Below, piece by piece: positions 48,190-48,234 of a DNA stretch of 64,000 nucleotides (position 1 is its first letter; each line of letters begins with the position of its first letter). The notes under the pieces are model-generated. The model saw only the letters and a program-made list of their open reading frames with translations. It made no database searches and was not told the origin of the DNA. This DNA is from Escherichia phage RCIP0319. The stretch lies in sequence record PV464738.1; one strand, 5' to 3'. A program made the translations under genes and the position numbers.

Positions 48190-48234
48190 AAGGTGAGCTA
48201 AATGCTTGCCTTTTCTTTTATCAATACTTATACT
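48190..48234 (+). promoter_or_regulatory. terminator-promoter cassette (copy 1)
   Basis: Hairpin AAGGUGAGC-UAAAU-GCUUGCCUU (two G-U pairs, plus-strand specific) and T-run; stem 3' arm TTGCCT doubles as -35, 17-bp spacer, TATACT. Confidence 0.5.

Follow-up and report, generated by a model that had tools for sequence, protein, structure and literature searches.

Two paralogous intergenic cassettes, each joining a putative terminator to a putative promoter, in the small-gene block of Wifcevirus phages

Introduction

In Escherichia phage RCIP0319 (PV464738.1), a hairpin, a T-run, and a pair of promoter-like hexamers follow one another in the gap between two small genes, and the same arrangement recurs a short distance downstream. 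This raises the question of what such a junction does, that is, whether it ends transcription, restarts it, or marks a place at which genes enter and leave the genome. A preliminary description, made from the sequence alone, had regarded the two junctions as a duplicated, strand-specific unit that terminates early transcripts arriving from upstream, re-initiates transcription, and brackets a block containing a YhhQ/DpdA gene pair. We followed up this proposal in the 64,000-nt stretch of the phage genome referred to here as the window; all coordinates are window positions and refer to the plus strand unless stated otherwise.

The window belongs to the genus Wifcevirus, given that the region is 83 to 90% identical to WFC, WFH, ECML-117, FEC19, vB_Eco4M-7, and Bas98 to Bas101, over only 49 to 58% of a 3.5-kb query. 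Members of this genus, which the taxonomy line of one record places in the Lindbergviridae, are myoviruses of E. coli and Shigella with genomes of about 67 to 72 kb, and they are under exploration for the biocontrol and detection of E. coli O157. Both junctions are located inside a long rightward gene block (∼40.98 to 56.0 kb), in which genes for primase and primase/helicase come first and are followed by small, mostly overlapping genes whose functions are unassigned.

Results and Discussion

The window contains two copies of a noncoding cassette

The two junctions are paralogous noncoding cassettes of about 80 bases each, at 48188-48268 (aaaAGGTGAGCtaaatGCTTGCCTTttcttttatcaatactTATACTcttTTCATCAAGactaacaagcGAGGTGAttATG) and 50884-50964 (ataaaaAGGTGAGCtatatGCTTGCCTTtttatttgcctgtatTATACTtaaTTCATCAAGcaAAGGAGaattgattATG). 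Both are built in the same order, with an A-tract, a hairpin, a U-tract, a -35 element that coincides with the 3' arm of the hairpin, a spacer, a -10 element, a TTCATCAAG box, a Shine-Dalgarno sequence, and an ATG. Copy 1 follows a gene for 110 amino acids (47850-48182), the last one of the putative upstream unit, which has annotated orthologs in the relatives and whose TGA (48180-48182) precedes the A-tract by 5 nt. The putative intrinsic terminator stem-loop of this copy (48188-48214; AAAA-GGUGAGC-UAAAU-GCUUGCC-UUUU) has 11 pairs, including an adjacent U-G and G-U, and its U-tract (TTTTCTTTT) occupies 48211-48219. The putative σ70 promoter 1 (48206-48234) is composed of TTGCCT (48206-48211), a 17-nt spacer, and TATACT (48229-48234), after which the TTCATCAAG box (48238-48246), common to both copies, extends across the expected transcription start. 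The Shine-Dalgarno sequence GAGGTGA and the ATG of the first gene past the cassette are found at 48257-48268. In copy 2, the putative terminator (50884-50918; AUAAAAA-GGUGAGC-UAUAU-GCUUGCC-UUUUUAU) has 15 pairs, with a U-tract (TTTTTATTT) that follows or overlaps the stem, and the putative σ70 promoter 2 (50906-50933) consists of TTGCCT (50906-50911), a 16-nt spacer, and TATACT (50928-50933). The second TTCATCAAG box is located at 50937-50945, and the Shine-Dalgarno sequence AAGGAG with its ATG at 50948-50964 belongs to a gene for 100 amino acids (50962-51264), the first one of the putative downstream unit, which is swapped for unrelated genes in several relatives. All parts listed in the preliminary description, namely, the T-run, the TTGCCT element formed by the hairpin 3' arm, TATACT, the conserved box, and the ribosome-binding site, are therefore present in both copies.

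When the window was scanned with a 23-nt hairpin pattern allowing up to three mismatches, two matches were obtained, versus none in 100 shuffles, bearing out both the duplication and the placement of the two copies (hairpin segments AAGGTGAGCTAAATGCTTGCCTT at 48190-48212 and AAGGTGAGCTATATGCTTGCCTT at 50890-50912). A motif search for additional copies had been suggested as a check, and within the same limit of three mismatches the window holds no further or degenerate cassette. A repeat finder reported the pair as a 35-nt direct repeat with 89% identity and a distance of 2,700 nt between the copies. Similar stems in unrelated IMG/VR contigs were discarded as extra copies, since they turned out to be tRNA-adjacent sequence or unrelated terminators. 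Aligning the two copies with each other, we found that identity is confined to islands (the A-tract, hairpin, and -35 element; the -10 element; the TTCATCAAG box; and a TGATTATGA start context), with diverged spacers between them. The genes around copy 1 are not paralogous to those around copy 2, which rules out a larger segmental duplication and shows that the cassette was repeated by itself.

A duplication of another type was noticed in the structural-gene block of the window, where positions 18690-18943 form a perfect tandem repeat (2 × 127 nt, 100% identical) that reflects either a genuine duplication within a gene or an artefact of assembly.

The hairpins resemble intrinsic terminators

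In plus-strand RNA, the hairpins are predicted to fold with -13.7 kcal/mol in copy 1 and -17.8 kcal/mol in copy 2 (z = -3.3 and -6.3, respectively). Their 7-bp core, GGUGAGC/GCUUGCC, comprises four G-C, two G-U, and one A-U pair closed by a 5-nt loop, and the stem extends from there into the A- and U-tracts to 11 pairs in copy 1 and 15 pairs in copy 2, reaching -13 to -16 kcal/mol with the A/U extension. The core is predicted at -8.7 kcal/mol on the plus strand versus -3.2 kcal/mol on the minus strand, in which A-C mismatches take the place of the two G-U pairs. The earlier proposal that the hairpin needs two G-U pairs and forms only in plus-strand RNA was correct in that the structure contains these pairs and is clearly stronger in the plus strand, but its exclusivity was overstated, since minus-strand RNA still folds, with a 2 × 2 internal loop (-9.2 kcal/mol for copy 1 and -13.8 kcal/mol for copy 2).

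Both hairpins share the layout of canonical intrinsic terminators of the A-tract type, such as those predicted by ARNold in WFC and WFH, with a stem-loop, a 3' U-tract, and a complementary 5' A-tract located just past a stop codon. The core stem contains G+C and falls within the usual range of ∼5 to 14 bp with a loop of 3 to 8 nt, a U-rich tract lies immediately 3' of it (UUUUCUUUU in copy 1 and UUUUUAUUU in copy 2), and the A-tract starts 5 nt (copy 1) or 2 to 8 nt (copy 2) after a codirectional stop codon. A consensus scan called copy 1 alone terminator-like, copy 2 being missed because its maximal stem absorbs the T-run, which is an artefact of the scan rule. The orthologous hairpins are both already annotated in GenBank on the basis of ARNold, as “putative transcriptional terminator, -10.10” in WFC and as “terminator” in WFH. 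These annotations are silent on three features that the present analysis adds, namely, the paralogy of the two terminators, their overlap with a putative promoter, and their conservation throughout the genus. Given the moderate predicted stability of the core and its two G-U pairs, termination may be partial. A search of positions 47500-51500 against Rfam gave no match at an E value of ≤1, ruling out a known RNA family for the cassette.

The promoter-like hexamers recur upstream of other genes

The arrangements TTGCCT-17-TATACT and TTGCCT-16-TATACT each agree with the σ70 reference hexamers (TTGACA/TATAAT, 16- to 18-nt spacer) at 9 of 12 positions, and both spacers lie within the reference range. 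A 9/12 match alone is not above chance, as the 42- to 58-kb region contains 35 promoter-like sites versus 27 ± 5.9 in shuffles. The same types of hexamer, TTGC(C/T)T and TATA(A/C)T at a distance of 15 to 17 nt, are found directly upstream of genes at 1395, 15748, and 42066 on the plus strand and at 37182, 40888, and 63876 on the minus strand, and TTGACT-16-TATACT is found at 40925 on the plus strand. This recurrence at gene-proximal intergenic sites shows that the cassette promoters fit the apparent promoter family of the phage; the other promoter-like sites in the window are not accompanied by the hairpin. Combined with the finding that the otherwise diverged paralogs have kept both the hexamers and their spacing, it suggests that the cassettes likely contain a functional promoter.

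Several other functions for parts of the cassette were considered and rejected. The TGCTT of the hairpin 3' arm could be taken for a MotA box, which lies ∼12 nt from the -10 element in T4 middle promoters; here the distance is ∼19 nt. The 8-mer TCATCAAG, present at 48239 in copy 1 and at 50938 in copy 2, occurs 18 times genome-wide versus 3.3 times in shuffles. It is not a special motif, since it ranks ninth among frequent coding 8-mers and a 6th-order Markov model predicts 16 occurrences. A regulatory pairing of TCATCAAG with the Shine-Dalgarno/ATG region in the 5' untranslated region was dismissed as well, given that only weak folding (-3.5 and -4.7 kcal/mol) is predicted for the leaders. 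Finally, 93-nt coding sequences are annotated across the cassette in Bas98 and Bas99, and the window contains long open reading frames with TTG or GTG starts at 48206 and 50893. A small peptide encoded across the cassette was rejected because these frames need strain-specific point changes and are closed by stop codons in most genomes, and because the frame of the in-hairpin ATG relative to the downstream gene differs between the two copies.

Two further intergenic arrangements were observed near promoter-like sites. At 43254-43312, upstream of the primase/helicase gene, a hairpin with a T-run (GCCAGAtttCTGGCgtttattt) comes within ∼10 nt after the promoter-like TTGCTT-15-TATATT, an arrangement that could give rise to a very short transcript or act as an attenuator. 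The other one, at 1237-1356, consists of two ATCCGTATC repeats ∼73 nt apart, each with ...GCGCGGCT behind it, in the intergenic stretch that immediately precedes the promoter-like site at 1395 and a gene whose start is at 1447.

The cassette pair is conserved across Wifcevirus

Using a 141-nt query around copy 1, we retrieved 56 places from 28 Wifcevirus records of the phage collection, with exactly two per genome. For comparison, both copies were extracted from 17 relatives as well as from IMG/VR and metagenome contigs. The stem, TTGCCT, and TATACT are invariant in the 36 copies from 18 genomes, apart from one stem substitution (G to T in SP13 copy 2). The TTCATCAAG box is likewise invariant in these 36 copies and reads TCATCAAT in one metagenomic contig. 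The loop occurs in three variants (TAAAT, TATAT, and TAAGT). Nucleotide diversity, computed in 20-nt bins on alignments of collinear genomes, is 0.000 to 0.014 in cassette 1 and 0.016 to 0.025 in cassette 2, versus 0.05 to 0.36 in the flanking coding DNA, making the cassette the most conserved stretch of its neighborhood. Among 26 stem sequences, the 11 pairs showed no compensatory change, all of them being invariant apart from one substitution. Given this invariance, covariation is uninformative either way, and the case for the structure comes from thermodynamics and conservation only. No genome with a single or hybrid cassette was found among the 28 records or among the IMG/VR and metagenomic contigs spanning both positions.

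The VUT/DpdA module is a later insertion between the cassettes

The block between the cassettes starts with a conserved module of four genes (48266-49435) that encode proteins of 105, 72, 127, and 86 amino acids with unassigned functions. In the relatives, this module is the sole content between the cassettes, in some of them with one extra 285-nt gene (four or five genes in total), so that the cassettes are 1,252 to 1,540 nt apart in the 17 relatives measured, versus 2,700 nt in the window. The difference in the window includes a lineage-specific insertion of 1.45 kb (49436-50885), located between the TAA of the 86-amino-acid gene (49175-49435) and hairpin 2. It contains three open reading frames, of which the first encodes 47 amino acids (49453-49596). 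The second encodes a VUT/YhhQ-like membrane protein of 158 amino acids (49581-50057; phrog_4899), whose homologs in Opt-719-type phages are annotated as “VUT family.” The third encodes a DpdA-like transglycosylase of 275 amino acids (50054-50881) that matches phrog_887, “queuine tRNA-ribosyltransferase,” in PHROGs (E = 4e-71). Neither the VUT/YhhQ-like nor the DpdA-like protein had a match in Pfam or NCBIfam.

The nearest relatives of the module are found in siphoviruses of the Rogunavirinae, e.g., Opt-719, with 61% amino acid identity, ∼65% DNA identity, and the same order of the three genes. Its presence suggests the acquisition of 7-deazaguanine DNA modification from a Rogunavirinae-like donor. 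Among the Wifcevirus-type sequences found, only the window phage and a short public contig (SRR13308472), which is 96.7% identical to the window and has the same insertion with the same junctions, carry the module, and neither the module nor a DpdA homolog is present in any Wifcevirus record of the phage collection. The module has no promoter or terminator of its own.

These observations contradict the idea that the YhhQ/DpdA pair is the core of a unit formed by the cassettes. In the 17 relatives, a 1.25- to 1.54-kb block lacking these genes lies between the same two cassettes, and two copies are present in all 28 records, again without the module, which was inserted later, immediately before hairpin 2. 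The cassettes are thus linked to DpdA only incidentally, and a specific link is ruled out by the absence of DpdA homologs from the Wifcevirus records, the closest relatives being those of Rogunavirinae phages.

Gene gains and replacements adjoin the cassettes

Comparing the loci of close relatives, we found at least five independent insertion, deletion, or replacement junctions that adjoin the cassettes. WFC, SP13, and Bas100 contain an extra 195-nt gene before hairpin 1, which F13 shares and which has homologs in the unrelated siphoviruses ST20 and Yersinia phage P400. In the first three phages, this gene (locus positions 1375-1630 in WFC) is bounded by a 21-nt direct repeat, AAATGAATATCAAAAAGGTGA, whose left copy provides the Shine-Dalgarno sequence of the gene (AAGGTGAtttATG) and whose right copy comprises the stop codon of the gene along with the A-tract and 5' arm of hairpin 1. 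Like the VUT/DpdA module, the 195-nt gene of the WFC group is devoid of a promoter and a terminator of its own. Past promoter 1, CWP003 has a different gene. Promoter 2 is followed by three different replacement genes, one in Bas101, one in FEC19, Ro157lw, and Bas99, and one in ECO71P1, and the similarity ends at the ATG or, in the FEC19 group, a few bases past it. The VUT/DpdA insert of the window starts with ctGGTGAGgtaaatATG and ends with aaaaGGTGAGC; neither a clean duplication at its junctions nor a second cassette at the left junction was found.

Most gene gains and swaps among the relatives thus adjoin the cassettes, with the indel of the 285-nt gene inside the bracketed block being located away from them. 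Since true intergenic gaps are rare in this block of overlapping genes and the cassettes belong to them, tolerance alone could explain this clustering. We propose that it is their being rare intergenic gaps, together with their high conservation, that directs gene gain and replacement to their edges. Any active role of the cassettes in recombination is a matter of inference.

The cassettes probably separate successive transcription units

Considering the above, we think it probable that each cassette combines an intrinsic terminator with a σ70 promoter and so insulates successive transcription units from one another. The Rho-independent terminator would stop transcripts coming from the left, and the host σ70-type promoter, whose -35 element is the 3' arm of the stem, would restart transcription, with the short leader and its ribosome-binding site then serving the next gene. 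In this way, the two junctions would split the rightward small-gene block downstream of the primase/helicase genes into separately initiated units, so that read-through would be damped and every unit would have its own start, as in the promoter-early stem-loops (PeSLs) of T4-type phages. The VUT/DpdA module would have been appended to the 3' end of the promoter 1 unit, which terminator 2 would close. That the cassettes terminate and re-initiate, as the preliminary description had proposed, is what we infer as the best reading from their conserved anatomy and their fit to the PeSL type.

PeSLs have been described in the T4-type phages RB49/phi1, PST/T4, and nt-1/KVP40 (Arbiol et al. 2010, PMC2839356; Comeau et al. 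2014, PMC4122927). They comprise an upstream stop codon, an AT-rich stretch, -35 and -10 elements, a stem-loop that contains G-T pairs and can overlap the -35 element, a Shine-Dalgarno sequence, and an ATG, and both their promoter and their terminator activity were shown experimentally (PMC2839356). They are ∼100 nt long and associated with indels (PMC2839356, PMC4122927). The Wifcevirus cassette is similar in being an intergenic composite of ∼80 to 100 nt that runs from a stop codon to the Shine-Dalgarno sequence and ATG and has the same composition. Both kinds of element are located among small genes without assigned function, and indels or replacements between close relatives adjoin both. 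However, the cassette is present in two copies per genome, whereas there are ∼50 PeSLs in phi1/RB49, in hyperplastic regions, and Wifcevirus is a lineage distinct from the T4-like myoviruses. Furthermore, PeSL recombination gives deletions with a hybrid cassette as well as mini-circles, and neither a deletion nor a hybrid was seen in the Wifcevirus genomes and contigs examined. The VUT/DpdA insert is not bounded by two cassettes, and the -35 element is weaker than in the consensus-like PeSL promoters. Given the few copies, the different lineage, and the lack of a hybrid or deletion, the cassettes are PeSL-like rather than strict PeSLs.

The arrangement also recalls a known view of phage genomes. 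In the modular theory of Susskind and Botstein and the “moron” concept of Hendrix and Juhala, genomes are mosaics with conserved boundary or linker sequences, and a classical moron carries its own promoter and terminator. As with morons and boundary sequences, genes were added here at conserved noncoding junctions, and the mosaic breakpoints fall at gene boundaries. Unlike morons, the VUT/DpdA module and the 195-nt gene would use a resident upstream promoter and a resident downstream terminator.

The composite reading has to be weighed against several others, the closest of which does away with the promoter. If the cassettes were only terminators, they would terminate transcripts from upstream or shield the 3' ends of these, read-through would account for expression of the genes that follow, the promoter-like hexamers would be incidental, and the conservation downstream of the hairpin would reflect the translation-initiation region or another cause. 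We consider this unlikely, even though the terminator features are canonical and independently annotated, a 9/12 promoter match is common in the AT-rich DNA of this region, and the -35 element would be constrained regardless because it is part of the stem. TATACT and its distance of 16 or 17 nt from TTGCCT are kept in both paralogs despite their diverged spacers and do not vary among the 18 genomes inspected, the same hexamer types stand at other gene-proximal intergenic sites that have no hairpin, and downstream genes would need a promoter if termination were efficient. A different proposal would place the function in the DNA, with the imperfect inverted repeat AAGGTGAGC/GCTTGCCTT being an operator at which a dimeric phage or host regulator switches both promoters. 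An inverted repeat over the -35 element does occupy a classical operator position, and its sequence is invariant, with two identical sites per genome. Yet the half-sites agree at only 7 of 9 positions, with both mismatches corresponding to plus-strand G-U pairs (a 5.5-kcal/mol core asymmetry), the loop, which would be the operator center, is the only variable part, and an operator needs neither an A-tract nor a T-run directly after a stop codon, all of which makes this proposal highly improbable. A stable and conserved plus-strand hairpin between cistrons could also be an RNA processing or stability element, i.e., an RNase III or RNase E determinant or a protective 3' stem that sets the half-lives of mRNA segments. 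This possibility is highly improbable as well, because, for a substrate of RNase III, a stem of 11 to 15 bp and a 5-nt loop would be short, the U- and A-tracts are hallmarks of terminators, and Rfam has no matching family.

Two other readings start from the mosaic junctions. The cassettes might be recombination linkers, that is, patches of homology for module exchange between coinfecting phages with little or no role in transcription, which would agree with their being far more conserved than the flanking genes, with most swaps and insertions adjoining them, and with the 21-nt duplication around one insertion. This appears very unlikely to us, given that the conservation islands shared by the paralogs are promoter and terminator elements and not one uniform block, that neither a deletion nor a hybrid single cassette occurs in the 28 records and the metagenomic contigs spanning both positions, and that the insert in the window has no second cassette at its left junction. 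A more specific and tentative idea, to which we assign a low probability, is that the cassette is an active site of gene capture, in which the 5' arm of the hairpin (AAAAGGUGA) mimics the usual Shine-Dalgarno sequence of the phage (GAGGUGAnnnAUG). If the ribosome-binding site of an incoming gene recombined with this arm over a short stretch of homology, cargo lacking a promoter and a terminator would be inserted exactly between the last stop codon and the terminator, and this would account for the 21-nt duplication in the WFC group and for the GGTGAG...GGTGAG boundaries of the VUT/DpdA insert. If true, gene capture would extend modular shuffling of the PeSL type to an unrelated phage family and give it a mechanistic variation.

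If our composite terminator-promoter reading is correct, the cassettes would be the first defined transcription-unit boundaries for Wifcevirus phages, and PeSL-like junctions, so far described in T4-like phages, would also exist in an unrelated myovirus lineage. The junctions would then mark plug-in sites for accessory genes, including a VUT/DpdA-like pair of the kind linked to 7-deazaguanine DNA modification, and payload genes could be engineered into these phages at two natural, well-insulated positions. The cassettes themselves are an ordinary kind of phage signal, and no general concept is changed by their finding.

Other repeated motifs in the window

The motif TTTGCACTAT is present in six copies, all on the plus strand, within 0.9 kb (55549-56442). 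Two of these copies form a tandem that directly follows a pair of strong, overlapping promoter-like sites (TTGAAC/TTGAAT-17-TATAAT; 55490-55536), and the array resembles iterons or operator sites.

When both strands are counted, the 64 kb contain the heptamer GCGCGGC 65 times, versus 9.9 ± 3.1 times in shuffles (maximum, 21), and the most frequent 8-mers of the window are GCGCGGCA and AGCGCGGC. The copies of the heptamer lie within genes, dispersed at a density of about one per kb and with differing flanks (e.g., at 1276, 1349, 47785, 50734, and 50808), and their orientation is 26 plus to 13 minus up to 40 kb and 5 plus to 11 minus at 41 to 56 kb. Candidate roles are a Chi-like site, a nick site, and a packaging or modification target. 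The density in 17 other Wifcevirus loci is 0.5 to 1.9 per kb (mostly 1.2 to 1.9), that in unrelated DpdA loci is 0.44 per kb, and the Opt-719 locus has no copy; the horizontally acquired DpdA gene of the window contains two.
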